From assembly GCA_963793425.1 (NCBI GenBank), contig CAWCAG010000005.1, positions 778,174 to 842,173 of the forward strand: 64,000 bases of DNA, in the 5' to 3' direction. Position 1 is the stretch's first letter. Each line of letters begins with the position of its first letter. Below are positions 50,489-64,000 of the stretch, one piece after another. The notes under the pieces are model-generated. The model worked only from the letters and a program-made list of their open reading frames with translations. It did no database searches and was not told the DNA's origin. The DNA is from an uncultured cyanobacterium (lineage in GTDB: Bacteria > Cyanobacteriota > Cyanobacteriia > Cyanobacteriales > CAWCAG01). A program made the position numbers and the translations under genes.

Positions 50489-52021
50489 ATGATTTCTAAG
50501 ACTCGTGGCGCGATCGCTGCCGGACATCAGAAAACGGCAGAAGCTGGACAAGCAATGTTTGCTTTAGGAGGTAATGCTTTTGATGCTGCCGTAGCAGCAG
50601 TATTGGCTGCTTGTGTGACAGAGCCTTGTTTAACTTCAGTGGCAGGGGGAGGATTTTTACTTGCTCATACTCAAGATAATCAACAACTTTTATTTGATTT
50701 TTTTACTCAAACTCCCCAGCAAAAAAAGCCTCTTTCCCACCTTGATTTTTATCCTGTTGAAGTTAACTTTGGTGGCGCGAAGCAAATCTTTCATATTGGT
50801 AAGGGGGCAATGGCTGTGCCGGGTAATCTGGCAGGCTTATTTACCGTACAGGAGAAGCTAGGTAAATTACCCTTTGAGGAAGTAGCCCAACCCGCTATTG
50901 ATTATGCCAGTAAAGGAGTAGAAATCAGTAAGTTTCAAGACTTTTGTTTGACAATTCTCGAACCAATTATTAGCGCTTCTCCTGAGTCAAGAAACTTGTT
51001 TTTCTCTCAAGGAAAAAGATTACAAGCCGGAGATATTTTCAAAAACTCAGATTTTGCGATTACTTTAAAGCATCTAGCTAAACACGGAGTAAAAGAGTTT
51101 TATGAAGGAGAAGTTGCTCGACAGTTAGTTGAAGATTGTCAAAAACAAGGAGGACATCTAACTTTAGAAGACCTACAAAGCTACCAAGTAATTATTAGGC
51201 AACCCCTCAAAACCCATTATCGTGGCTACCAAGTTATTACCAATCCATCTCCTAGTTCCGGGGGAACATTAATTAGTTTTTCCCTACAACTATTAGCAAC
51301 AATTAACTTAGCTAACCTCGAATTTTCTAGCCAAGAACACTTACAAATTCTAGCTCAAGTAATGAGTTTAACCAATATAGCCAGGGAAAGCAAACAAGAT
51401 GACTTTCCTGACAATTTCCTGGCTTTAGAACATTTACAAAACTATCAAAAAAGCTTACAACACAACGCCAATAAATTGGGCGGTACTACCCATGTTAGCG
51501 TCATTGATGAGTTAGGAAATGCTGCTAGCGTCACTACTTCTAACGGGGAAGGTTCTGGTTATATTATTCCTGGCACAGGAATTATGGTTAACAATATGCT
51601 AGGCGAAGCAGATTTAAACCCCAAAGGATTTCATAATTGGCCAACAAATCAGCGCCTTACTTCTATGATGGCTCCCACTATTATTCTTCAAGAAAATAAT
51701 CCTCAGTTTGTCCTTGGTTCGGGAGGTTCCAATCGAATCAGGACAGCAATCTTACAGGTTATTTCCAATTTAATCGATTTTAAAATGAGTTCTCAATTAG
51801 CAGTAGAAAGTCCCAGAGTACACTGGGAAAATAATTTATTCCACGTTGAACCTATGGCTAATCTAGAAGTTATTGATAACCTCAAATTACCAAACTCTAG
51901 CCAAGTCGTTTTATGGCCAGAAAAAAATATGTTTTTTGGTGGAGTTCATGGAGTAGAAGTTACTAATAACGCCCTATTTGGTGCAGGAGATTCTCGGCGT
52001 ATGGGAGTATTTCTGAAGTAA
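50489..52021 (+). CDS. ggt: gamma-glutamyltransferase
   Basis: 510 aa. The autoprocessing/catalytic site is GGTTHVSVID. Also GSGGSNRI. Confidence 0.9.
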   Translation: MISKTRGAIAAGHQKTAEAGQAMFALGGNAFDAAVAAVLAACVTEPCLTSVAGGGFLLAHTQDNQQLLFDFFTQTPQQKKPLSHLDFYPVEVNFGGAKQIFHIGKGAMAVPGNLAGLFTVQEKLGKLPFEEVAQPAIDYASKGVEISKFQDFCLTILEPIISASPESRNLFFSQGKRLQAGDIFKNSDFAITLKHLAKHGVKEFYEGEVARQLVEDCQKQGGHLTLEDLQSYQVIIRQPLKTHYRGYQVITNPSPSSGGTLISFSLQLLATINLANLEFSSQEHLQILAQVMSLTNIARESKQDDFPDNFLALEHLQNYQKSLQHNANKLGGTTHVSVIDELGNAASVTTSNGEGSGYIIPGTGIMVNNMLGEADLNPKGFHNWPTNQRLTSMMAPTIILQENNPQFVLGSGGSNRIRTAILQVISNLIDFKMSSQLAVESPRVHWENNLFHVEPMANLEVIDNLKLPNSSQVVLWPEKNMFFGGVHGVEVTNNALFGAGDSRRMGVFLK

Positions 52022-52047
52022 TAAGTAATAAGTAATAAGTAATAAGT
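52016..52047. repeat. heptamer array AAGTAAT x4.5
   Basis: It starts inside the last ggt codons and covers the stop codon. Confidence 0.85.
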
Positions 52048-52061
52048 TTGAAAATTTTCTC

Positions 52062-52086
52062 TAGCCTGACGGCAACCCTCCGCGCA
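52062..52086 (+). repeat. dispersed repeat (TAGCCTGACGGCAAC...GCGC), copy 2
   Basis: It matches 15307-15332 and 52261-52286. Confidence 0.5.
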
Positions 52087-52097
52087 CTGTGTTGGTA

Positions 52098-52132
52098 ATT
52101 AGCGATTAGCAACTAGCAACTAGCAATTAGCC
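52098..52132. repeat. heptamer array A(T/C)TAGCA x5 (reverse complement of the TTGCTAA family)
   Basis: attagcg attagca actagca actagca attagcc. Confidence 0.85.
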
Positions 52133-52133
52133 A

Positions 52134-52238
52134 TCACTTTTGTGTCCAAAAAGTAGTAAACATCATCAACATCGCACCTATAAAAATTATCACTCCAAGT
52201 CCACCAGCAATATAGTTTAGTAATTCAGTATTTTCCAT
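52134..52238 (-). CDS. candidate 34-aa single-TM micro-protein
   Basis: ATG...TGA ORF below the track cutoff: MENTELLNYIAGGLGVIIFIGAMLMMFTTFWTQK. One clear hydrophobic helix. No obvious SD and no family recognised. Confidence 0.3.
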   Translation of the reverse strand: MENTELLNYIAGGLGVIIFIGAMLMMFTTFWTQK

Positions 52239-52260
52239 AATTTCAACCATAAATGTTTAA

Positions 52261-52300
52261 TGTAGCCTAACGGCAACGCTTACGCGAATAATGTTCAATG
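52261..52300 (+). repeat. dispersed repeat, copy 3 (tgtagcctaacggcaacgcttacgcgaataatgttcaatg)
   Basis: It matches 15307-15350 over ~40 nt. Confidence 0.5.
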
Positions 52301-53278
52301 TTCAATGATATTAGCATTGGCATTCCTTCGTAACATTTTAGGCTTAATTCTCCTCAAAGCTGAAGCAGGAAATCTTTGTTGCCATTCTTCTTCGGTAATT
52401 TCTGCTAATTCTGTTAATTTGGGAGCAACATTACCAGGATAGGGTTGAAAATCTTCCACATCAGTTTCTTGAGCAAAACGCTGATTCCAAGGACAAACAT
52501 CTTGACAAATATCACAACCTGCTACCCATCCTTCTAAATGGGGTTGGACTGATTTTGGTAACTCCGTATCTCGATTTTCGATGGTATGATAAGCAATGCA
52601 GCGATTAGCATCCACAACAAAAGGTTGGACAATAGCATCCGTAGGACAAGCTTCTAAACAGCGAGTACAAGTGCCGCAATGTTCTGTATGGGGAGTATCC
52701 GGTGATAAGACTAAATTAGTAACTATTTCCCCTAAAAACACCCAACTACCATATTCTCTCGTAATTAAATTACTATTTTTAGCCACCCAGCCAATTCCTG
52801 CTTGTTGGCTCCAAAATTTATCTTGTATTGGCGCAGTATCAACATAATAACGTGCTGTCACCTCTTCTTCTTTCCCTTCTTCCTGCAACCAAGCCGTCAA
52901 AGCTTTCAGTTTCTTCTGCATAACTTTGTGATAATCCCTTCCCCAACCATAACGGGATATTTTCCCGTATTTTTTCCCTTCTGGTCGCTGATGGGGGGTA
53001 TAGTAATTCAGAGCCAGACAAATCACTGATTTAGCCTCTGGCAGCTCGAAGCGCTTAGGATGAGCCATCCAAGCCATATTAGCTTGATACCCCAAACTTA
53101 ACCAATTCTGAAGGGAAGCAGCAGCAGCCTGGTGAGACTCAGTTGCCGCTTCAACAGAAGCAACACCTACTTCATGAAAACCAATAGCTAGAGCTTGTTC
53201 TTTAAGTAAAGAACTATCAATGTTCACTGTACTTAAGTTTGCTTTATTTCTGGTAGAGTAGTTTCCAATTTTAAACAA
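52295..53278 (-). CDS. queG: epoxyqueuosine reductase
   Basis: 4Fe-4S motifs CGTCTRCLEACPTDAI and CDICQDVCPWN. The track start at 53278 overlaps the upstream gene by 46 nt. An in-frame GTG at 53227 (VNIDSSLLKEQA...) is an alternative start. Confidence 0.88.
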   Translation of the reverse strand: MFKIGNYSTRNKANLSTVNIDSSLLKEQALAIGFHEVGVASVEAATESHQAAAASLQNWLSLGYQANMAWMAHPKRFELPEAKSVICLALNYYTPHQRPEGKKYGKISRYGWGRDYHKVMQKKLKALTAWLQEEGKEEEVTARYYVDTAPIQDKFWSQQAGIGWVAKNSNLITREYGSWVFLGEIVTNLVLSPDTPHTEHCGTCTRCLEACPTDAIVQPFVVDANRCIAYHTIENRDTELPKSVQPHLEGWVAGCDICQDVCPWNQRFAQETDVEDFQPYPGNVAPKLTELAEITEEEWQQRFPASALRRIKPKMLRRNANANIIEH

Positions 53279-53664
53279 TTACGACCATTTACTTGTAAGC
53301 GGTATTCCACTCTATCCATCAAACGGTTCATAATTAACCAACCATAACCGCCTTCTTGCTTATCATCAGGTTTCGGCGGCAAATAGGTTGAGAGATCAAA
53401 ACCCTTGCCGTAGTCCCAAATTTCTACAGCAATATCCCGCTCTTTCAATTCTAGGCAAACTAAAACAGGTAAATTGGGTTGATCCTTATGGGCATGACGT
53501 ACTACGTTCGAGTAAGCTTCTACTAAGGCTAAGCGTATCCGATTTTGTTGACTAGGCCAATCAACAGAATCACCTAACTCTAGAGTCAAAGAGTCAATTA
53601 ACCAACACTCAACAACCTTGAGAAACTTCAACTCACTTGGTACGTGTAGTTCAGTCTTCATCAA
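53233..53664 (-). CDS. RsbW-type anti-sigma factor / Ser-Thr kinase (HATPase_c_2)
   Basis: 143 aa. LALVEAYSNVVRHAH and GGYGWLIMNRLMD. It starts on the base next to the stop codon of the upstream PP2C gene. Confidence 0.75.
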   Translation of the reverse strand: MMKTELHVPSELKFLKVVECWLIDSLTLELGDSVDWPSQQNRIRLALVEAYSNVVRHAHKDQPNLPVLVCLELKERDIAVEIWDYGKGFDLSTYLPPKPDDKQEGGYGWLIMNRLMDRVEYRLQVNGRNCLKLETTLPEIKQT

Positions 53665-55377
53665 CTACATAACCTCCAGAGATAAAATAGTTTGGTCATC
53701 TTCTTGGACTTTATTGGTGTATTCTCCCAAGTGCTTTAGTAACTCGTCCAAGTTTAAAGGATCGGACTCTTGGAGTAGTAATTGCCAAAGACCTTGTTGA
53801 TTTAGCATTGAGCTAGCCTGGATTGTTTCATCCGCAGCCCCATTAGATTTGTTTACCATTGATCTTGTCACAGTTGCTTCTGTAATGCCATCACTAGTTA
53901 AAAGAAAAATATCACCCTGTTCTAAAGTTGAGTTACCCGCTTTCCCTTTCCAATCTTTAAGGATACCGAGGGGAATACCGCGAGTTTGTAAATAGTTTGG
54001 TTCTACTGTTATCTCTTTACTAGCATTTTTCCTCTGTTCAGCAACGGTACGATGCGACCAGAGCATAGGATAAATATGACCCGCATTAGCATAAGCTAGC
54101 TGGTTGGTGCTAGGAGTATAACGGGCTAAAACCATAGTTATAAAGCAGTTGGTGCTGAATAAATCTTCTGACATACTGCGGTTGAGGTTTTTCATCACTT
54201 CTTCTGGCTCTGGAGAAACTTCTTGGGCAACTTCTCTCCTCAGTACAGAAATGGCACTGGCCATAAATAAAGCCGCAGGTACACCCTTACCAGAAACATC
54301 AGCCACTGCCAACCAAACATCTCCTTGGGGATGGACATAAACTTCAAAGAAGTCTCCCCCTACTTCCCTAGCTGGGAAACAGCTAGCTTGGACAAAAACC
54401 CCTTCAACTTCTGGCCAGCTTTGACGTAAGATATTATTTTGAATCTGTCGAGCCACTTCTAATTCTGCTCGCATTTTTTCAGCTTGCTGTTGAGTTCTTT
54501 GTAAAAGCCTAGCTTGAGAAATTGCCAGGGCTGCTTGTTCACTCACAGCTTCTAGTAACTCAATATCAGATTCATCTTTAGCTGTAGCACTATCGATTTC
54601 ATAAAGAGAGAGAATTGCTAGTAATTCTTGCTGGCAGATTAGTGGCACAGCCAAGTGAAAGCAGTTTTCTTTACCAGTTTCTGCTGAGGTCAGCTTTTTA
54701 GTTTTTTGGCTCGATAAAACCTCTTGAAGCAAAGACTCTTCTTCTTGAGCAGAAATATCCCACTGGGCAACATTATTAATTTGAAAAGAGAAAGACTCTG
54801 GTAATATTTCCTGACCACTAATCGGCCGCAGCACTCCAGCTTTGGCCCCAAAATTCTCACCAATGGTTTTGACAATGGTTTGGGCCATACTGCTGTAGTC
54901 TAAGGATTCGCGAATTGTGTTAGTAATTTCATTTAATAACTCTTCGCGCCTCAAAACACGCCGCAGTTCATTAGTTCTTTGTTTAACAACCCTATAGGTA
55001 TCTGCTGCTTGTTGAACTACTGCTTTGAGCTTTTCAGGATTCCAAGGTTTGGTGATGTATTTGAAAACTTTACCGGAATTAATTGCTTCTACCAGGTCTT
55101 CAACATCGGTGTAACCAGTAAGAAGAATACGAATTGTATCGGGAAACCTTTCTACGGTTTTGCTTAAAAATTCTGTGCCATTCATAACTGGCATACGTTG
55201 ATCTGAGATGATTACAGCCATCTCTCCTTCCTTGTCAAGAATTTCGAGGGCGCTAAGGGCCCCATCCGCTTTACGAACTCGAAAATCTCGCCGGAAAGTC
55301 CGATAGAGCAAGTCTAAGTTGTCAGGCTCATCATCCACCACCATTAAATTAAGTTTGTTGCGGTTTGCCTGACTCAT
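53665..55377 (-). CDS. response regulator - GAF - PP2C/SpoIIE phosphatase (RsbU-like)
   Basis: 570 aa. REC (LMVVDDEPDNL, ISDQRMP, KPW), a GAF-like middle region and PP2C motifs (GGDFFEV, ADVSGKGVPAAL, LTSDGITEA). Confidence 0.85.
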   Translation of the reverse strand: MSQANRNKLNLMVVDDEPDNLDLLYRTFRRDFRVRKADGALSALEILDKEGEMAVIISDQRMPVMNGTEFLSKTVERFPDTIRILLTGYTDVEDLVEAINSGKVFKYITKPWNPEKLKAVVQQAADTYRVVKQRTNELRRVLRREELLNEITNTIRESLDYSSMAQTIVKTIGENFGAKAGVLRPISGQEILPESFSFQINNVAQWDISAQEEESLLQEVLSSQKTKKLTSAETGKENCFHLAVPLICQQELLAILSLYEIDSATAKDESDIELLEAVSEQAALAISQARLLQRTQQQAEKMRAELEVARQIQNNILRQSWPEVEGVFVQASCFPAREVGGDFFEVYVHPQGDVWLAVADVSGKGVPAALFMASAISVLRREVAQEVSPEPEEVMKNLNRSMSEDLFSTNCFITMVLARYTPSTNQLAYANAGHIYPMLWSHRTVAEQRKNASKEITVEPNYLQTRGIPLGILKDWKGKAGNSTLEQGDIFLLTSDGITEATVTRSMVNKSNGAADETIQASSMLNQQGLWQLLLQESDPLNLDELLKHLGEYTNKVQEDDQTILSLEVM

Positions 55378-55638
55378 TTACTCACTCCAGTTTGGCGATC
55401 CATTGAAAAAGACATCAGTGCGCTTATATTTTAAGAGCTTGACTGGCAAATTTTGCACCAACAAAAAGCTTACCAGCCAAATACCAGGACAATTAATCAT
55501 TTTAGATGCTAGTAAGGTTTAATTTCCGTAAGAGTCATTACCAACCCAATTAAAGAGTGGTTTGTTGGAGATTTGCTTCATAACTAAAAATAAGCTTAGT
55601 AGGTGAAGATTATATTATCGCTTGCTTTTTTCATCTCC

Positions 55639-56364
55639 TCAACCAACTAATCCTGAACGAAGAGCGCGAACAGCAGCTTGGGTGCGGTCATCAGCACATA
55701 ATTTGTTTAAAATATTACGAACGTGAGTTTTAACGGTTCCTACGGTAATAAAAAGTTTTTCAGCAATTTCAGCGTTGCTACAACCTTCGACAATAAGTTG
55801 AAGAACTTCTAGTTCCCTTTCCGTAAGAGGATAGGCTTCAATAAGTTGACTATATTCTGGCTCAGCAGCATTGATTCTCACTTTCCCTGGGTTCCCCGAA
55901 GGTACAGGGTTGGTTTCAGTGGAGGAACCTTTGGTTTGCGAGAGAATAATTCTGGCGATCGCCGGATCGATCCAAGCATTGCCCTCATGGGTTAATTTAA
56001 GTACCTCGATTAAGCGATCAAAGCTCATATTCTTCATACAGTAAGAATCAGCCCCAGCCGCAAAAGCAGCCAAAACAGCTTCTTCGTTATCGTGTAAAGT
56101 CAAAATCAAAATTTTGATTGGTTTTGATTCCCCTGATGAGGAATTTTCTTTTGATTTGCGAGTTAGCTCTATACCATCGATATCTGGCAGACCAATATCG
56201 ACTATACCGATATCAGGTTGGTAAGTTTCCAACAATTTTAAACCTTCAGTCCCATTAGCCGCTTCACCAACCAATTCGATCTCATTGGACTGTTGTAGTG
56301 CAGTCCTAAGTCCGACTCTAGTTAGATCGTGGTCTTCAATGAGAGCAACACGAATTTTACTCAT
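55639..56364 (-). CDS. NarL/FixJ-type response regulator (REC + LuxR HTH)
   Basis: 241 aa. IRVALIEDHDL, DIGIVDIGLPD and LTERELEVLQLIVEGCSNAEIAEKLFITVGTVKTHV. Confidence 0.9.
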   Translation of the reverse strand: MSKIRVALIEDHDLTRVGLRTALQQSNEIELVGEAANGTEGLKLLETYQPDIGIVDIGLPDIDGIELTRKSKENSSSGESKPIKILILTLHDNEEAVLAAFAAGADSYCMKNMSFDRLIEVLKLTHEGNAWIDPAIARIILSQTKGSSTETNPVPSGNPGKVRINAAEPEYSQLIEAYPLTERELEVLQLIVEGCSNAEIAEKLFITVGTVKTHVRNILNKLCADDRTQAAVRALRSGLVG

Positions 56365-56639
56365 CTTGAAAACGTTTCCCCAAAAAACTCTAATAACTAA
56401 TCAATAAAGTGTAGTATCTTCTCTAGCCTTTAGTTCAGATTGTCACAAATTACAGAAAATTGTCGTCAATACTTTGGTGAGCAATCAAAATTAAATTACT
56501 CTTAATATTTAACCTATCTTTAAGTTATGGGATGGTTAATTGGGCGTTGATTACTGACATAAAAGTCCTTAAATTTGTTTGACATGGGAAATAATTTTGC
56601 TGCTTTAGTATAAGTACTTTGAACTAGTAAGACAATCAA

Positions 56640-59339
56640 TTGAGACTAATTGATAGGAATGAAACCGTGAAAATTCTGGTGGTAGAAGATGATGAAATTG
56701 AACGTATGGTGCTGTACAAAGCCCTAATTAAAGCCAGGGCTGATATAGAAATGGAATCAGCCAATACCTGTGAGAGTGCTATTGCCAGCTTAAAACAACA
56801 AAGAGATTTTGAATGCGTTTTCCTGGACTACAGGTTGCCAGATGGTAGCGGCAGAGAACTAGTTGAAAAAATTCGTCGTGCAGAGATTAAAGTCCCCTTG
56901 GTGGTTTTAATCGCCCAAGGAGATGAGCATTATGCTGCTGATTTGATTAAAGCTGGGGCTTCTGATTATATTCCCCAAAGAAAAGTTTCTTCTGAGAGTT
57001 TGGCTCGTAGTCTTCACAATTCAGTACGCTTATACCATGCTGAGCAACAAGCTGATTTTGCGAATCGACGCTTGCAAGAAAGCGAGGAGATGTACCGCTT
57101 AGTTGTTGAAGGTTCTAATGATGGTATTTGGGATTGGGATCTTGATAGCCATAAAGTTTATGCCAATGATCGCCTTTTGGAAATGGTCGGTTTATCTCCC
57201 CAGGGAGTGACTGTTAATTATCAGCTCTTAAAAAAGTTATTACATTTAGGTGATCGCCTGAAGATTAGTCGGGCAGTTCGCGCTCATTTAAGGAAGCAAG
57301 CTAAGTTTGAGGTAGAGTTTCGGCTACGTCATGTGAGTGGGGAATACCTTTACTGTGTGGCGAGGGGAAAAGCCCAAAGGGATAGTAGCGGTAAGCCCCT
57401 AAGAATGTCTGGTATCGTTAGTGATATTACTGAGCGTAAACGCACAGAAGGGCGGACTCGCTTTTTAACTGAGGCCACGGAAGTTTTATCAGCTTCTTTA
57501 GATTATCAAACTACCCTAGAAAATCTTGCTCAGCTAGCTGTTCCTCGTTTAGCAGATTGGTGTGCTATTGATGTGGTTGATTCTCAGGGAGATTCTCGCC
57601 GTATCGCTGTTACCCACATAGAGCCTAGTAAAGAGGCTTTGGTGCGGCAGCTAGATTGCTCTGATGAGACAAAAGGTTATTGTCCTGTGGTTGGTTATGG
57701 CCAGGTTATTCATCGGGGCAAATCCGCTGCTTGTTTTTATGTTTCTGAAGAAAATTTAGCCCAAATAGCCAGGAATGAAGAACATCTAGAAAGACTCAAA
57801 AGTTTAAATATTCATTCTTATATTTGTGTACCCTTGAAAACTGGGGAAAGAACTTTAGGCTCTATTTTGTTTGTTTGGAGCGAATCTGGGCGCTGCTATA
57901 CCCAAGATGATTTTAAGCTAGCAGAAGATTTGGCCCATCGCGCAGCTTTGGCTATAGAAAATGCTCGACTGTTTCAAGAAGCCCATCAAGCGAGTGAGGA
58001 ACTACGCCAAGCTAATGCCATTTTAGGGGAACAACAACAACAACTACGTACTCTCCAGCAACTAACAAATTTATTGAATCATCGGCTCACAGATTTACCA
58101 GATTTGTTGCGGGTGATGGCCCGCTCTGTGTGCGAAGCTATTCCTGGAGCGCAGATTTGTTTTATTGCTTTATTTAATACTCAATGTAACCGTATGATGC
58201 TGACGGTGACTGCGGGGGTGGGGGAAGAAAGCCTCAGCTTGGAGGATGCTTCTTCTTCTAAGAGTTTGTTACGTCAAGTTTTTTTAACCGGGCAACCCAA
58301 GTTAATTCAAAGTCCTCAACAAGAAACAGGTTCAGCAAAAAGTTTGCCTCAGACGATTTATGCCGTACCAATCAAATCTGTGAAGTCAGGAAGTTTAGGA
58401 ATTTTGGCCATTGGTAATTGGGAAAATCCTACGGCTTTTGATAAAGAAGGACAATATCTTTTAACTGCTGTGGGAGAACAAGCTGCGATCGCCATTGATA
58501 ATGCTCGTTTGATTAATACCCTGGAAGAGAGGGAAGAGCGTTTAGAGTTTCAAAATCAAATTTTAGCAGAGCAAAATCAGGAGTTAGAAAGTCAGCGCTA
58601 CCAAATTCAACTGCAAAATTTGCAACTAATGGAAGCGGCAAAGATGAAGTCGCAATTCTTAGCAGTAATGTCCCATGAGTTGCGTACCCCCATGAATGCT
58701 ATTATTGGCTTTTCTCAAGTACTTTTACGTAAGAAAAACTCTGATACCCTAAGTGCCAATCAAGTACAGATGTTGGATAGAATTTATAATAATGGCAAGA
58801 CTCTTTTAGATTTAATTAATCATATTCTTGACCTTTCTAAAGCAGAAGCAGGACGTTTAGAATTACAAATTAAAGATTTTGATATTGTGCAGTTAGTGAG
58901 GACAACTATTGAGGAATTACGTCCTTTAGCTGATGAGAAATATTTAAGTTTAACATTTGATGTTAAGCTCAAACATTCTCGTGTTTGTAATGATAGCCTC
59001 CGTTTACGACAAATTGTCGTTAATCTCCTTTCTAATGCTATTAAGTTTACTGACAGAGGAAGCGTTGAGGTATTGATCCAAGAGGTAGATGAAGAGCATT
59101 TAGAAATAGCTGTTAAAGACACAGGTATTGGTATTAACGGGGAGCAGAAAGAGTATATTTTTGAAGAGTTTCGCCAAGTAGATCAAACCACGACCCGCAA
59201 ATATTCTGGTACGGGTTTAGGGTTAGCAATTACTGAGTCTTTGGTTAAGTTGATGCAAGGAGAAATTAGTGTAGAAAGTCAGCTTGGTGAAGGAGCTACT
59301 TTTAAGGTTAAGTTGCCTTATCGGGTTAGGTGTTGCTAA
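56640..59339 (+). CDS. hybrid sensor kinase: REC - PAS - GAF - GAF - HisKA - HATPase
   Basis: 899 aa from the TTG at 56640. An in-frame GTG at 56667 (VKILVVEDDE) is the more typical REC start. H-box SHELRTPMN. ATPase motifs KDTGIGI and GTGLGLAI. Confidence 0.9.
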   Translation: MRLIDRNETVKILVVEDDEIERMVLYKALIKARADIEMESANTCESAIASLKQQRDFECVFLDYRLPDGSGRELVEKIRRAEIKVPLVVLIAQGDEHYAADLIKAGASDYIPQRKVSSESLARSLHNSVRLYHAEQQADFANRRLQESEEMYRLVVEGSNDGIWDWDLDSHKVYANDRLLEMVGLSPQGVTVNYQLLKKLLHLGDRLKISRAVRAHLRKQAKFEVEFRLRHVSGEYLYCVARGKAQRDSSGKPLRMSGIVSDITERKRTEGRTRFLTEATEVLSASLDYQTTLENLAQLAVPRLADWCAIDVVDSQGDSRRIAVTHIEPSKEALVRQLDCSDETKGYCPVVGYGQVIHRGKSAACFYVSEENLAQIARNEEHLERLKSLNIHSYICVPLKTGERTLGSILFVWSESGRCYTQDDFKLAEDLAHRAALAIENARLFQEAHQASEELRQANAILGEQQQQLRTLQQLTNLLNHRLTDLPDLLRVMARSVCEAIPGAQICFIALFNTQCNRMMLTVTAGVGEESLSLEDASSSKSLLRQVFLTGQPKLIQSPQQETGSAKSLPQTIYAVPIKSVKSGSLGILAIGNWENPTAFDKEGQYLLTAVGEQAAIAIDNARLINTLEEREERLEFQNQILAEQNQELESQRYQIQLQNLQLMEAAKMKSQFLAVMSHELRTPMNAIIGFSQVLLRKKNSDTLSANQVQMLDRIYNNGKTLLDLINHILDLSKAEAGRLELQIKDFDIVQLVRTTIEELRPLADEKYLSLTFDVKLKHSRVCNDSLRLRQIVVNLLSNAIKFTDRGSVEVLIQEVDEEHLEIAVKDTGIGINGEQKEYIFEEFRQVDQTTTRKYSGTGLGLAITESLVKLMQGEISVESQLGEGATFKVKLPYRVRCC

Positions 59340-59425
59340 TTGCTAATTGCTAGTTGCCAATTGCTCTCTCCCTAGCTCCCTAGCTCCCTAGCTCCCTAGC
59401 CCCCCAGCTCCCAAGCTCCCCAGCT
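59333..59425. repeat. two abutting simple-sequence arrays: TTGCTAA x4.7 (59333-59365) and CCCTAGCT x7 (59370-59425)
   Basis: Together they occupy the entire spacer between two convergent genes and overlap both stop codons. Confidence 0.9.
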
Positions 59426-60182
59426 AATTAACAGTAAAGCCACCATCTACGGTAATTCCTTGCCCTAAGACAAAAGAAGCTTCAGGGGAAGATAACCAAA
59501 CCACTGCATCGGCAATTTCTTCTGGTTTACCAAATCTGCCAATAGGATGCAAAGACTTCGTTTGTTCTATGAGGGCAGCATCTCTTTCTAGAAACTCTTC
59601 TAGCATTCGAGTTTCAGTGAACCCTGGACAAACTGCATTAATCCGAATCTCTTGTTTGGCGTATGCTAAGGCAGCAGACTTCGTTAAACCCAGTACGGCG
59701 TGTTTAGAAGCAACATAGATTGCATGGCCAGGAAAGCCGACTAGACCAGCAATAGAGGCATTATTAACAATAGTCCCACCCCCGTTGGCTAACATATATT
59801 CAATTTCACATTTCATGGAATACCAGACTCCTTTAACGTTGACACCCATCACCAAATCGAAAGTTTCTTCCTTTTGATCTGGGAGCATAGCTTGAGGATC
59901 TTCTACTCCAGCATTGTTAAAAGCAGCGTGCAACCCACCGTAAGTATCGACTGTGTATTTGATTAAGTTTTGGACATTTTCAAATTTAGTTACATCTGCT
60001 TGACAAAAGCTAGCTTTACCCCCAGCTTTTTGAATTAGTTCAACGGTTTCTTGACCACCTTTTTCATGATGATCACCAACTACTACGGATGCCCCTTCCG
60101 AAGCAAATTTGAGGGCAGTAGCCCTACCAATACCAAAACTGCCACCAGTAACTAATGCCACTTTGTCAACAAATCGATCCAT
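59424..60182 (-). CDS. short-chain dehydrogenase/reductase (SDR)
   Basis: 252 aa. TGGSFGIGRA, NNAG and YVASKHAV. Confidence 0.9.
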   Translation of the reverse strand: MDRFVDKVALVTGGSFGIGRATALKFASEGASVVVGDHHEKGGQETVELIQKAGGKASFCQADVTKFENVQNLIKYTVDTYGGLHAAFNNAGVEDPQAMLPDQKEETFDLVMGVNVKGVWYSMKCEIEYMLANGGGTIVNNASIAGLVGFPGHAIYVASKHAVLGLTKSAALAYAKQEIRINAVCPGFTETRMLEEFLERDAALIEQTKSLHPIGRFGKPEEIADAVVWLSSPEASFVLGQGITVDGGFTVN

Positions 60183-60354: not shown

Positions 60355-60540
60355 CTAAACCCCTCTTGTTATTAATCCTCTCAGAGAAGTAATCAAGACT
60401 GCGATCGCAATAATAATAGCGGCTGGTGTGTCTCCATGTTCTAGTAATGTTGCCAAGTTAATTTCGATGGTTGGTTCAGGAATAGTGATTACTTGGTTGG
60501 TGGGGATTTGATTGTTTAATTGAGTTTCTTGGCAAGTCAT
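60355..60540 (-). CDS. hypothetical small protein with C-terminal TM helix
   Basis: 61-aa ORF divergent from the HTH-NTPase gene. AAIIIAIAVLITSL is hydrophobic. There is no other support. Confidence 0.3.
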   Translation of the reverse strand: MTCQETQLNNQIPTNQVITIPEPTIEINLATLLEHGDTPAAIIIAIAVLITSLRGLITRGV

Positions 60541-60690
60541 GATGATTAATTACTCTGTGTGTTTATTGTTATTAACATCATCTCTTGCAGTCCATATGAA
60601 AGTCAGTAGGGCGATGTTAGAAGATTAGCAAAATGAGAATGTAAGCTATTGTAAGATTTGAGATACGGTGCAAATTATCCGTCCTAACTT

Positions 60691-61704
60691 ATGGCACAAG
60701 AAGAACAGAAACAGCTAATTGAAATATTAGAAGCACAACAGGGTAAATTTCTTAACGATAGTGAGAAAGCTGTTTTGCAAGGAATGTTGGCTGGGCAAAC
60801 TTACGAAGTTGTTAGTAAGGAAATTCCTTTAGATTACAATTATGTGCGGCAAATTGGCAGCAAATTGGTTAAAGATATTGGTGAAATTTTAAACAAAAAA
60901 GTCACGAAAAACACTCTTGCTGCTGCAGTAGAACAGCTTTTAGGGCAACAATTAAAACAAGAACCAAAATCGCAGCCCTTAAATCTTGATAATCCTTTTA
61001 TTCCTACTAGCGGAATTATTGAAACGCCACAGCTATTTTTCAATCGCGAGAAGGAAATCAAAGATATTTTTGAGTTACTAAATAGTCGTTCTAGCGTAGC
61101 TGTAATTGGAGAAAGACAAGTTGGTAAGTCTTCTTTACTTCAAGCCATTTTTCGTCAAGCAGAAACTCAATTACAACCTCCCCGTCGTCCTATTTACTTA
61201 CATTTGCAAGGAATTAGTAATGAGGAGGATTTTTATGCTTATCTTTGTGATGAAATTGATATTCCTCTGCAAACAGGTTATCAGTTAACTCGTGCTTTGA
61301 AAAAGCAGCATTTATTGTTACTTATTGACGAAATTGAAAAGATGAATGGGCCAGGTTTTACCCGTGATGTGAGAGAAAAACTTAGGAGTTTAGCAGAAGG
61401 AGAAAATGCGCCTTTGCGTTTAGTAGTGGCGGCGCGGACACCTTTAACAGAATTATTTCCCGACGATGAGCCTGGTAAAACCTCTCCCTTAGCTAACATT
61501 TGTCCACCCGTAGAAGTTCCGATTTGGCCAGAAAAAACAGCCCGTGATTTTATCCAATCTCGTTTAGCCATGTCCCCATTAAGTTCAACAATTACTTTCT
61601 CCGATTCAGAAATAGAAAGTCTATTAAAAGAAAGCAACTGTCACCCTCAAAAGCTAACCAGATTGTGCAATAAACTATATAGCAGCAAAAAAGGAGAAAT
61701 CTAA
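60691..61704 (+). CDS. P-loop NTPase (AAA/ATPase_2-like) with an N-terminal LuxR/sigma70-r4-like HTH
   Basis: 337 aa. The N-terminus LNDSEKAVLQGMLAGQTYEVVSKEI...YVRQIGSKLVKDI looks like an HTH. Then NPFIP...FFNREKEIKDIFELL, Walker A VIGERQVGKSSLL and Walker B LLLLIDEIEKM. Confidence 0.7.
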   Translation: MAQEEQKQLIEILEAQQGKFLNDSEKAVLQGMLAGQTYEVVSKEIPLDYNYVRQIGSKLVKDIGEILNKKVTKNTLAAAVEQLLGQQLKQEPKSQPLNLDNPFIPTSGIIETPQLFFNREKEIKDIFELLNSRSSVAVIGERQVGKSSLLQAIFRQAETQLQPPRRPIYLHLQGISNEEDFYAYLCDEIDIPLQTGYQLTRALKKQHLLLLIDEIEKMNGPGFTRDVREKLRSLAEGENAPLRLVVAARTPLTELFPDDEPGKTSPLANICPPVEVPIWPEKTARDFIQSRLAMSPLSSTITFSDSEIESLLKESNCHPQKLTRLCNKLYSSKKGEI

Positions 61705-61778
61705 CCCATAATCAACACATGATCTGGAATGTTGTAAGCATATACCGCCCACGAATAAATTCGCTGTCTCATAGCAAA

Positions 61779-61907
61779 AGTCATCTGAAGATGACTAGGA
61801 TACTGGTTTTTGGTAATTTGGTTACACTCTTTCCTAGGAAAAATCCCAGCACTGGTAGTCATCTTTAAGATGACTTAGGCTATTAGCCAGGGATTTTAAT
61901 CCTTGGC
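61779..61907. repeat. cluster of three short perfect or near-perfect hairpins (MITE-like dispersed-repeat module)
   Basis: agtcatc-tgaa-gatgact (61779-61796), agtcatc-tttaa-gatgact (61857-61875) and gccagggat-tttaa-tccttggc (61886-61907). The cluster lies in a 287-nt non-coding spacer. Confidence 0.6.
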
Positions 61908-61991
61908 GGGTTGAGTGAATAAGCAATTCATCTCTTTTTTGCAGCCTTCCAAGTTGTGTCAACAAAACCTACAACTCCCTACTCCTTAACC

Positions 61992-64000
61992 ATGACAGTT
62001 CCTCGCCTAGACTTAGCCCCAAAACTAAAGCGCCCTTTATCTCTTTGGAATCCTTTAGATTATTTGCGTTTACTCTATTGGGTGTTTTATTTTCCACAAG
62101 CTTTGCGATGGTATGGGGAAACTTTTGGTAGTGGGGTGAGTTTGAGTGATAAAAAGACTTGGCGAGAAAAATGGCAGTTGTTAACTGAGGATACTGTACA
62201 GCTTAAGTTTTTGCTACAGGGTTTGTTACTAACTTTTGTTGCACCATTACTGTTTTATTGGCTATTGGAAAGACGAGGAATTAATATCAGTTGGTTTGGT
62301 GTTGCGGTTGGTATTGCAGTAGGTGTTTTATTTTGCGTTTTGTTGAGCGTTGCAAATGGTGTTGAGGTTGGTATTGCAGCAGGGGTTTCGTTTAGCATTT
62401 CGTGGGGCATTTTGTTTAGCGTTGCGGTTGGTATTGCTGGAGGTGTTGCCACGGGAATTGCAGCATTCGCTGTCTTTAGTGTTGCAGGAGGCATTCCGTT
62501 AGGTGTTGTGACAGTTGCAGCATTCGCTGTCTTTAATGTTGCGATAAGTCTTGTGGCAGGTGTTTCGTTTAGCGTTTCGTTTGGAATTACAATAAGCTTA
62601 AGCATACTTCGCTTAGAAGCCTGGCTACTTGGCACAATCTTTTTCCCAAATCAGTTGTGGCAAACAAAACTAACTTGGAGTAGGACTACCTATCTTCCCT
62701 TGTTTGCCCTCTCCTCTCAGATCAAAACATGGATCAATCAAGATGAGTCAATTGCTATAGATAATATCAATCAGATTCTACGCTATACTCTCCAATGGAT
62801 TCCTGTAGTCAATGCTATTAACCAAGCACTAGCAGTAACTCCCAATGAACGAATTATTTGGCGAGTTACTCAGCTAACAAAATCTCCTTTTGACTGGAAG
62901 TTAATTCACCTTGCTTCTACTTCTTTGCAAGAAGAAATGAAATTGAGGGTTGTAGATATTCTTTTCTTGTTTTCTGGTCATTTGCAGCGTAGAATAATCC
63001 GTTTCTATCGAGGTACACGCCTTGACACATTCCCTCGTGCTACTGCTGCTGGCTTCTGGTATCTCCACGAAAAAGAACCCGCAAAAGCCCTGAAAGCATT
63101 CACTATTGTTCGTTCTCTGCTGTATGGCGAAGAACTCTTCATCCTTGCCCAAACCCTGACTAATTTCCACGAAATCCAAACCCTAAAAGACATTGCAGCA
63201 ATACCTTTGCCTACTCCTCCCCTGGAACCTTGGTTACGCCCCACAACCTGGGAAGCTATAGCAAAATTCCGACGGGCTATTGAAGATATCAAAGTAGTCC
63301 AATCTGGAACCTCTCGCGCCGCTAGATCCTTGGCTTTGAACCGCGCCCAAGGGGCATTGAAAGAAATATTAGATAACAAAGAAACTCTACCAGAAGCGGA
63401 AAGAGAGTTAATCATTGACATTGCTGCCACTTGGCAAGAAACTCTCCTCAGCATCACCGCAGAAATTGGTGAACTCGCCATCACCCAACCAGTAAAAAAT
63501 CCCTACATTGTTGGTGATCCTGTCACCGGGCAGCTTTTCCAAGGTAGAGAAGACATTCTGCGGCAATTAGAAGAACTTTGGGTAATGGGGGAACAACTGC
63601 AATCTGTGGTAATTTATGGGCATCGCCGCATGGGAAAAACCTCTCTGTTACTCAATGCTTCCAACTGTGTAGGAACAGGAATTAAAGTAGCCTTTATTAA
63701 CTTGCAGATATTAGGAAATTGCCCTCAAGGAGTAGTTGATATTTTAATTGCGATCGCCGATAGTATTTCTGAAGCAATTAATCTGCCTCCACCCCCAGAT
63801 GAAGAAATGCTCAGACTGCCCCAACGTGCTTTTAGACGTTACTTAAAGCAAGTAGAGGAAAAACTTAACCAAGAAAGCTTAATCGTTGCCTTAGACGAAT
63901 TTGAGAAAATTGAAGAATTAATCACAGCAGGTAAACTTTCCCCTGACTTCCTGGGTTTCCTCCGAGGTTGTGTACAACTTAGTTCTCGCATTGCCTTTGC
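61992..64000 (+). CDS. multi-TM glycine-zipper repeat domain fused to a P-loop NTPase (partial, continues past the window end)
   Basis: Not in the supplied track. My translation from the ATG at 61992 has no stop over 669 codons. It contains about 110 aa of G/A/V/F-rich TM repeats, then NPYIVGDPVTGQLFQGRED, Walker A YGHRRMGKTSLL (~63618-63650) and Walker B LIVALDEFEKI (~63879). Confidence 0.8.
   Translation, partial: MTVPRLDLAPKLKRPLSLWNPLDYLRLLYWVFYFPQALRWYGETFGSGVSLSDKKTWREKWQLLTEDTVQLKFLLQGLLLTFVAPLLFYWLLERRGINISWFGVAVGIAVGVLFCVLLSVANGVEVGIAAGVSFSISWGILFSVAVGIAGGVATGIAAFAVFSVAGGIPLGVVTVAAFAVFNVAISLVAGVSFSVSFGITISLSILRLEAWLLGTIFFPNQLWQTKLTWSRTTYLPLFALSSQIKTWINQDESIAIDNINQILRYTLQWIPVVNAINQALAVTPNERIIWRVTQLTKSPFDWKLIHLASTSLQEEMKLRVVDILFLFSGHLQRRIIRFYRGTRLDTFPRATAAGFWYLHEKEPAKALKAFTIVRSLLYGEELFILAQTLTNFHEIQTLKDIAAIPLPTPPLEPWLRPTTWEAIAKFRRAIEDIKVVQSGTSRAARSLALNRAQGALKEILDNKETLPEAERELIIDIAATWQETLLSITAEIGELAITQPVKNPYIVGDPVTGQLFQGREDILRQLEELWVMGEQLQSVVIYGHRRMGKTSLLLNASNCVGTGIKVAFINLQILGNCPQGVVDILIAIADSISEAINLPPPPDEEMLRLPQRAFRRYLKQVEEKLNQESLIVALDEFEKIEELITAGKLSPDFLGFLRGCVQLSSRIAF

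Follow-up and report, generated by a model that had tools for sequence, protein, structure and literature searches.

The window, a stretch of 64,000 nucleotides (nt) of DNA from an uncultured cyanobacterium, ends in two co-oriented genes encoding nucleoside triphosphatases (NTPases), here called gene A and gene B. The original prediction had described three open reading frames (ORFs) in this region, namely gene A (337 amino acids, aa), the longer gene B that runs off the end of the window, and a divergent ORF of 61 aa, and translation of the window returned all three at the same positions (Table 1). The stop codon of gene B lies at the equivalent of window position 64610 in a public contig (L001) identical to the last 1 kb of the window, which gives a full length of 872 aa from the ATG at 61992; a GTG further upstream, at 61956, would make it 884 aa. 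The ATG is the more probable start, judging by family N-termini such as MSQHQPVPRLNLAPKL, and a database entry (P0121) of 872 aa was 100% identical to gene B.

Conservation of the gene pair and polymorphism of gene A

Pairing of the two genes was surveyed by running a gene B family profile against GTDB, with each species represented by one genome. This gave 456 relatives, of which the best 80 loci, all cyanobacterial, were retained and searched for gene A homologues by tblastn. In 74 of these 80, the sequence directly upstream carried a gene A homologue, oriented like gene B and ending just before it. Of the six remaining, four had less than 420 nt of upstream sequence, so that the pair was adjacent in 74 of 76 testable loci, from different species. 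Spacers between the genes could be measured in 72 cases and had a median of 128 nt; 25 were overlaps (15 by 4 nt and 5 by 1 nt). When every ORF of every locus was clustered all-against-all, genes A and B were the only families common to most loci. In the reciprocal direction, gene A homologues were taken from the protein database (44-64% identical, or with other N-termini), and all seven that were testable preceded a large gene on the same strand, confirmed as gene B by its N-terminal motif in one of the seven. In six of these the partner was 870-980 aa long and abutted, overlapped or lay at most 37 nt from gene A, and in the seventh it had been called as two pieces (87 and 774 aa). Finally, the N-terminal half of gene B was recovered in 378 clusters among 1.84 billion representative proteins, the full-length members of which were all approximately 820-1035 aa, so that this half occurs in one architecture only. 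Together, the adjacency, the reciprocal result and the single architecture answer the objection, foreseen when the module was proposed, that the genes might be unlinked in most genomes or scattered at random. Named hits were without exception cyanobacterial, and nearly all filamentous. There is strong support for regarding A and B as a functional pair and as a two-gene module conserved in filamentous cyanobacteria.

Two Okeania loci, the sole ones in which other genes split the pair, contained 2.2-2.4 kb of extra ORFs between A and B (L066 5534-7982 and L081 5752-7982). Mastigocoleus sp. MO_188.B34 carried two copies of the pair (L032 and L086); its second gene B was 46% identical to the query, with a membrane region poorer in glycine and richer in charged residues.

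What the gene A homologues have in common is the NTPase, from the NPF motif onwards; their N-termini fall into unrelated classes. The largest, resembling the helix-turn-helix (HTH) type HTH_VMAP-M9, was represented by 26 loci in addition to the window, followed by CHAT (17 loci), an unassigned helical class with no Pfam match (10), an Xre-like class (8, the name coming from one source), Trypsin_2 (3) and GerE (2), with three singletons and five truncated genes whose N-terminus could not be classified; the CHAT, Trypsin_2 and GerE assignments were confirmed by Pfam. Protein database searches added a version with HEPN_Swt1, followed by gene B, and one with EAD9 (P0020), after which the gene B motif was absent in any frame of the only 125 nt downstream before the contig end. 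The N-terminal classes, at least eight in number, were polyphyletic on a tree of the C-terminal halves of gene B.

The class differences had arisen at two scales. Where trypsin and CHAT versions differed, the gene A NTPases were 81-92% identical, about as similar as the accompanying gene B, which indicates that the N-terminal domain alone was displaced. In pairs of HTH_VMAP-M9 with unassigned or CHAT versions, gene B was 80-95% identical and the gene A NTPase only 50-59%, which indicates that the whole of gene A was replaced. Two syntenic Nostoc loci had flanks 91-93% identical in DNA and gene B 84% identical, while gene A was without detectable DNA similarity except for its last 200 nt (69% identical). 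Within a single class, too, the divergence of gene A can outpace that of gene B (for example, 59% versus 93%). The gene B family was 50-55% identical over its full length across cyanobacterial orders. Kaur et al. 2020 (PMC7159879) place repeated displacement of the effector within a preserved operon first among the marks of conflict systems, and it was found here for gene A beside a constant gene B.

Domain anatomy of the two proteins

The shared layout of NTPase motifs that had been proposed was recovered motif by motif in both translations: NPFIP (residues 101-105), FFNREKEI (116-123), Walker A GERQVGKSSLL (140-150) and Walker B LLLLIDEIEKM (208-218) in gene A, and NPYIV (503-507), FQGREDI (516-522), GHRRMGKTSLL (543-553) and LIVALDEFEKI (630-640) in gene B. 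Direct comparison by BLASTP gave 33% identity over 63 aa (E 9e-5). Alignment of the family profiles with hhalign took in the whole gene A NTPase, matching residues 98-320 of gene A to 499-737 of gene B (209 columns, probability 95.6%, E 1.2e-8, 23% identity), and the best structural matches of the two AlphaFold models were also shared (2qen, 2fna, ORC/Cdc6 and NLRs). The cores are distant homologues. The similarity is beyond chance, and the term 'paralogues' used in the original prediction holds only at the superfamily level and otherwise overstates the relationship. STAND proteins are reportedly defined, after Leipe et al. 2004, by Walker A and B motifs and a GxP motif in the helical domain following the core, then by a winged helix. 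Both Walker motifs are present in both proteins, and motifs of GxP type were aligned by hhalign, GHP of the gene A family with GQP of gene B. The gene A family reads GGHPQ in consensus, P319 being invariant, where the window copy has C-H-P; in gene B, the DEFE of Walker B and G734-Q735-P736 were invariant in an alignment of 35 sequences.

Gene A scored above the Pfam cut-off for AAA_22 (43.2 bits) and for nSTAND1 (PF20703; 33.5 bits against a gathering cut-off of 27.1), the latter alignment covering model positions 13-161 of 379; its homologues scored 24-38 bits against nSTAND1. The typical nSTAND1 layout of effector or EAD, NTPase and C-terminal sensor repeats is not seen in gene A, the chain of which stops after the AAA+ lid at residue 337. 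The AlphaFold model (predicted local distance difference test score, pLDDT, 85.5) starts with an N-terminal domain of five helices and continues through a linker into an AAA+ base of five strands and a small helical lid; it shows neither a winged helix nor sensor repeats. Its closest structures by Foldseek were the archaeal ATPase_2 proteins 2qen and 2fna, then ORC/Cdc6, MuB, RFC and a plant NLR. The predicted HTH nature of the N-terminus was borne out by the precomputed Pfam assignment and by the modelled helices (residues 3-17, 23-33, 38-44, 49-67 and 73-90; pLDDT approximately 85). Its likeness to the LuxR type consists of a weak match of the family profile to GerE 1fse (E 0.0036); in the local Pfam scan the window protein gave no match to GerE or Sigma70_r4, and some homologues match GerE or Sigma70_r4_2 directly. 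The residue pair at Walker B was DE in 27, DN in 28, DK in 12 and other in 5 of 72 homologues; the catalytic glutamate is thus replaced by Asn, Lys, Gln or other residues in 45 of 72, and the window copy retains DE. A transposition ATPase of the TniB/MuB kind was considered and rejected: the TniB match was weak (E 0.0027), the structural likeness was only of a general AAA+ kind, and no conserved transposase was located nearby.

In gene B, the first 500 residues had no match in Pfam. Their N-terminal motif, VPRLDLAPKLKRPLSLWNPLDYLRLLYWVF.FPQALRWY, was nearly invariant in the 35-sequence alignment, which contained many invariant columns. The hydrophobic region that follows is almost uncharged between residues 96 and 206, contains 25 small-xxx-small motifs resembling a glycine zipper, and is encoded by a tandem DNA repeat of 57-60 nt (62277-62609). 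Among the homologues the uncharged repeat varied continuously in length from 22 to 169 residues, and the model was unreliable across it (pLDDT below 50). The multi-pass membrane repeat originally proposed thus stands as far as hydrophobicity and repetition go, and becomes doubtful as a conventional multi-pass domain: one helix length more or less would flip the topology, and a fixed polytopic bundle is hard to reconcile with continuous variation. The length series suggests instead an expandable, glycine-zipper-like membrane segment. An ORF of 126 aa rich in PTATP on the opposite strand (62255-62635, minus) was rejected as the spurious antisense of the GVAxGVAx codon repeat; it recurred in 61 of the 80 related loci.

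The helical middle domain of gene B, for which neither Pfam nor a sequence search of the PDB gave a match, is a candidate sensor or interaction domain. Beyond it, the model places an AAA+ base, a lid and a winged helix (helices 817-840 and strands 844-853) at residues approximately 510-868. Gene B scored 31.4 bits against Pfam ATPase_2 (PF01637), for which the gathering cut-off is 33.2, and precomputed annotations list PF01637 for most family members. A PDB sequence search with gene B found nothing significant; by structure, the closest matches of the AAA+ module were RuvB, Cdc6/Orc1, 2qen (TM-score 0.61), 2fna and the NLR RPP1. Names of family members in the records are generic: 'AAA family ATPase', 'ATP-binding protein' and sometimes 'helix-turn-helix domain-containing protein'.

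Table 1. Positions of the genes and sequence features at the end of the window (TM, transmembrane)
Feature	Position	Strand	Basis or remark
ORF of 61 aa	60355-60540	minus	ORF scan
Gene A (P1), 337 aa: N-terminal HTH and short nSTAND1-type NTPase	60691-61704	plus	ORF, Pfam, AlphaFold (AF2), Foldseek
Gene A HTH domain, residues 1-90, HTH_VMAP-M9 type	60691-60960	plus	precomputed Pfam PF26355; variable, putative output position of the family
Gene A Walker A GERQVGKS, residues 140-147	61108-61131	plus	GKS kept in 72 of 74 homologues
Gene A Walker B LLLLIDE, residues 208-214	61312-61332	plus	Glu variable across the family
MITE-like imperfect palindrome, 165 nt	61745-61909		inverted repeat; bulk of the 287-nt gap between A and B
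Gene B (P2), codons 1-669 of 872	61992-64000	plus	runs 610 nt past the window end
Gene B N-terminal motif VPRLDLAPKLKRPLSLWNPLDYLRLLYWVFYFPQALRWY, residues 1-45	61992-62126	plus	most conserved part of the N-terminal half
Gene B membrane region: TM segment (residues 69-92) and G/A/V-rich repeat (residues 96-206)	62196-62609	plus	hydropathy
Gene B all-helical middle domain, residues 237-492	62700-63467	plus	model pLDDT 75-93
Gene B AAA+ module, ATPase_2/ORC-Cdc6-like	63486-64000	plus	lid and winged helix beyond the window end
Gene B Walker A GHRRMGKT	63618-63641	plus	
Gene B Walker B LIVALDE	63879-63899	plus	

The A-B spacer and neighbouring genes

The palindrome in the spacer of the window locus has a predicted RNA fold of -62 kcal/mol (z -5.7). 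By nhmmer, it belongs to a family of approximately 120 nt with copies in the A-B spacer of some 13 other loci and at some 20 unrelated intergenic sites. Between copies, the inner hairpins show covariation (AGTCATCT/AGATGACT here; AGTCCACT/AGTGGACT and AGTCCTCT/AGAGGACT elsewhere), and no Rfam family was matched. A conserved RNA element of the spacer was rejected on the lack of a credible Rfam match and on the unrelated copies, which mark the palindrome as a dispersed repeat, not a regulator specific to the module. It is best read as an element like a MITE (a transposable element of the miniature inverted-repeat type), inserted between A and B, and it falls within the size range of known cyanobacterial MITEs (PMC3184786). 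The palindrome was over-represented in the A-B spacer.

The 61-aa ORF, which had been put forward as a transmembrane part of the module, does exist and has a C-terminal hydrophobic segment by hydropathy. Among 5.8 billion proteins its sole match was itself, and the closest related locus carries an unrelated ORF of 38 aa in its place; as an orphan that is not kept even there, it was rejected as a third component. Its likeness to the divergent ORFs of approximately 110 aa at four other loci was limited to the transmembrane segment, and jackhmmer inclusion failed. In many loci of the HTH class, divergent genes just upstream of gene A, in the position that the 61-aa ORF has in the window, code for unrelated small membrane proteins: a family of approximately 180 aa with an N-terminal anchor in 23 loci (L007 6029-6664, minus strand, and 22 others), and the tail-anchored family of approximately 110 aa (L067 6386-6745, minus strand, L071, L079 and L052). 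These genes may reflect synteny or a loose association.

Directly upstream of the module, the window contains a signalling cluster at approximately 51000-60182 (L001 1613-9492). It includes a hybrid histidine kinase of 899 aa (56640-59339), two response regulators, one with a GerE HTH and the other with a SpoIIE phosphatase, a HATPase_c_2 kinase, QueG and a short-chain dehydrogenase (59424-60182, minus strand). No member of this cluster was conserved beside the pair in other loci. A functional tie to the downstream ABC permease was likewise rejected, as none of the 80 loci has a homologue of the window's 278-aa permease; the ABC genes beside the Nostocales loci represent lineage-specific synteny.

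Interpretation and comparison with known systems

The reading that we favour, at a probability of roughly 55%, is that A and B together form a membrane-anchored, two-subunit nucleotide switch of AAA+/STAND-like type and of the prokaryotic conflict-system kind, serving immunity or programmed cell death. Gene B would be the constant core, held at the membrane by its transmembrane helix and glycine-zipper repeat and bearing the helical domain and a catalytically intact ATPase with a winged helix. Gene A would be an exchangeable mini-NTPase, sensorless, with its output domain at the N-terminus. A cue sensed by gene B at the membrane would lead to ATP-dependent assembly, in which the gene A NTPase would co-assemble with gene B in the manner of the unlike subunits of ORC/Cdc6 or RFC, both of which are precedents for rings of unlike AAA+ subunits, and the resulting clustering of the gene A N-terminal domains would activate them. 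In the window, where the output domain is an HTH, the action would be DNA binding (regulation or tethering), not proteolysis. That the two proteins act as one machine is suggested by the strict coupling, the overlapping frames, the homologous cores, the absence of a sensor in gene A and the often degenerate active site of A beside an intact one in B, and a mixed assembly of unlike subunits is, we infer, the simplest mechanism. What the data show directly is the anatomy of the domains, the homology of the cores, the conserved and often overlapping adjacency, and a constant gene B beside a polymorphic gene A; that the proteins interact physically, which way the signal runs, what the cue is and that the role is one of conflict are inferred. 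A narrower version is tentative and falls short of even odds: an immunity, cell-death or kin-discrimination system specific to multicellular cyanobacteria, in which the constant glycine-zipper ATPase would sense and assemble in trans, the polymorphic mini-NTPase would deliver the outputs, and gene A alleles would be kept or exchanged by recombination at a fixed locus.

A conflict role is plausible but unproven. On the one side, the proposal that this was a conflict or STAND-rich signalling system gains from the CHAT, trypsin and HEPN N-termini and from the cassette-like swaps; on the other, a number of observations weigh against it. No known defence system was matched: searches with PADLOC-DB v2 and the NCBIfam anti-phage models gave nothing above noise, the matches being weak (E 1e-6 to 1e-3 over approximately 100 residues) and confined to the NTPase/P-loop region. 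The models concerned (PDC-S01, PDC-S27 and PDC-S60 of PADLOC, DS8 and DS41 of NCBIfam) show local P-loop likeness with no full-length match, and this likeness, with a DS8 score of 23.7 bits against a cut-off of 790, does not amount to membership. The pair loci sit in stable, lineage-specific synteny among housekeeping genes, not in defence islands or mobile elements, with neighbours that include psbEFLJ, rpiA, ABC transporters and two-component genes. No relatives were found among IMG/VR viral contigs, and the sole plasmid match, to Acinetobacter, was distant and partial (25.7% identity over 45% of gene B), with none to a cyanobacterial plasmid. Gene B is more strongly conserved than is usual for a component in an arms race, and about two thirds of the gene A versions are HTH-like, not destructive, which plain regulation would explain equally well. 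At the window itself, co-transcription of A and B is made uncertain by the 165-nt palindromic insert; the closest relative of the locus has a spacer of only 37 nt. Finally, at two loci (L031 and L082) gene B truly lacks a gene A neighbour, although approximately 8 kb was available upstream; gene B may on occasion work by itself or have its partner gene at another site. The ORF upstream of gene B in L082 (463 aa) resembles an aminoacyl-tRNA synthetase by eye.

Several of these points make a regulatory module a serious rival, although we consider it rather unlikely on balance: gene B would be a membrane sensor ATPase of ordinary signalling that holds or releases gene A, a small ATP-dependent transcription factor like MalT, in response to envelope, osmotic or filament status. 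MalT combines a STAND ATPase with a LuxR HTH and is kept in check at the membrane by the MalK ATPase. The missing defence matches, the housekeeping surroundings and the conservation of gene B would all fit, as would the HTH of the window's own gene A and the prevalence of HTH-like N-termini (26 HTH_VMAP-M9, 2 GerE, 8 Xre-like and 10 possibly HTH, of 69 classified). What tells against it is that CHAT, trypsin or HEPN in the slot of the HTH is hard to square with one regulatory function, that replacement of the whole of gene A between strains whose gene B is 90-95% identical suggests diversifying selection, and that HTH_VMAP-M9 and EAD9 themselves belong to the domain network of conflict systems (PMC7159879).

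A conflict system of the opposite polarity is improbable. Here gene B would be an executioner that permeabilises the membrane on ATPase-driven oligomerisation, and gene A a variable sensor or trigger, its HTH sensing foreign DNA and its proteases or RNase serving as relays. STAND proteins usually carry their effectors N-terminal to the ATPase, which is where gene B has its membrane array, rich in small-xxx-small motifs and 22-169 aa long; this leaves some room for gene B as a membrane effector, the role given to it in the original prediction. Set against that, CHAT, trypsin and HEPN typically serve as effector or processing domains and not as sensors, sensor repeats are not recognisable in gene A, and in known systems it is usually the effector that varies beside a constant core (PMC7159879), whereas gene B is the constant partner here. 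The earlier division of roles, with gene A as sensor and gene B as effector, is not supported; if the pattern of constancy and variation favours either gene as the one with the output domain, it is gene A. Chance adjacency, with A and B unrelated neighbours or members of large, scattered NTPase families, could draw on the very large superfamilies to which both domains belong and on the weak direct similarity of A and B; it is refuted for practical purposes by synteny across several cyanobacterial orders, by the frequent 4-nt overlaps and by the reciprocal survey and single gene B architecture, and we give it hardly any weight.

STAND and AAA+ switches underlie innate immunity in animals, plants, fungi and bacteria, and to our knowledge nearly all known bacterial ones hold effector, NTPase and sensor on a single polypeptide. 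The A-B module splits those roles across two homologous NTPases, one of them membrane-embedded, and, at a stable locus, the subunit that bears the effector varies in the manner of cassettes. If the conflict role is true, a split, hetero-oligomeric design joins the repertoire, and the module would offer a tractable case for the control of cell death or phage defence in multicellular cyanobacteria; if the role is regulatory instead, it would represent a signalling route from membrane to DNA that is widespread in filamentous cyanobacteria and unstudied. In both cases, the gene B family bears only generic names, with 500 N-terminal residues that no Pfam model covers. Full-text search of the accessible literature found no description of the pair, and the module is apparently undescribed.

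Among known proteins, the archaeal ATPase_2 family (PF01637; 2qen PABY2304 and 2fna SSO1545) and ORC/Cdc6 resemble both genes in the AAA+ base and lid, and gene B also in the winged helix, but unlike gene B they are soluble and lack the transmembrane/glycine-zipper region and the helical middle domain. The MalT/LAL regulators share with gene A the fusion of a LuxR-like HTH to a STAND-type NTPase; they differ in that the domain order is reversed and that gene A has neither a winged helix nor sensor supersecondary repeats, and the comparison was made at the superfamily level. In the two-gene EACC1 conflict system (PMC7159879), a constant membrane component, with a transmembrane segment rich in small residues or glycine, likewise stands beside a variable, caspase-bearing one; in contrast to gene B, the former is a small single-transmembrane domain without an ATPase, is encoded 5' of the variable gene and is mainly actinobacterial, and no sequence relationship was found between EACC1 and the gene pair. 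A two-gene nSTAND2 system (PMC8195603, Figure 6C), as far as that source was accessible, also has adjacent STAND-type NTPase genes predicted to act against invaders, but the NTPase family is a different one.

A close parallel is offered by the nSTAND1 counter-invader systems (PMC8195603); gene A passes the Pfam threshold for nSTAND1. In the accessible part of that survey, nSTAND1 proteins are single chains of approximately 1100-1600 aa with C-terminal beta-propeller, TPR or FGS sensors, and they carry N-terminal caspase/CHAT, trypsin, LuxR-type HTH or EAD domains as the gene A versions do. CHAT (a caspase-like protease), trypsin, HEPN (an RNase), EAD9 and HTH_VMAP-M9 are, in the portions of the two surveys at hand (PMC7159879, PMC8195603), members of the effector and adaptor set of NTP-dependent conflict systems. 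Gene A homologues, unlike those single chains, have 330-450 aa, are sensorless and are coupled to a separate membrane ATPase, a partner that was not found in the same part of PMC8195603. Measured against the nSTAND1 proteins described in that part, the combination of a short gene A and a membrane ATPase on another chain has the look of the nSTAND1 design split in two.

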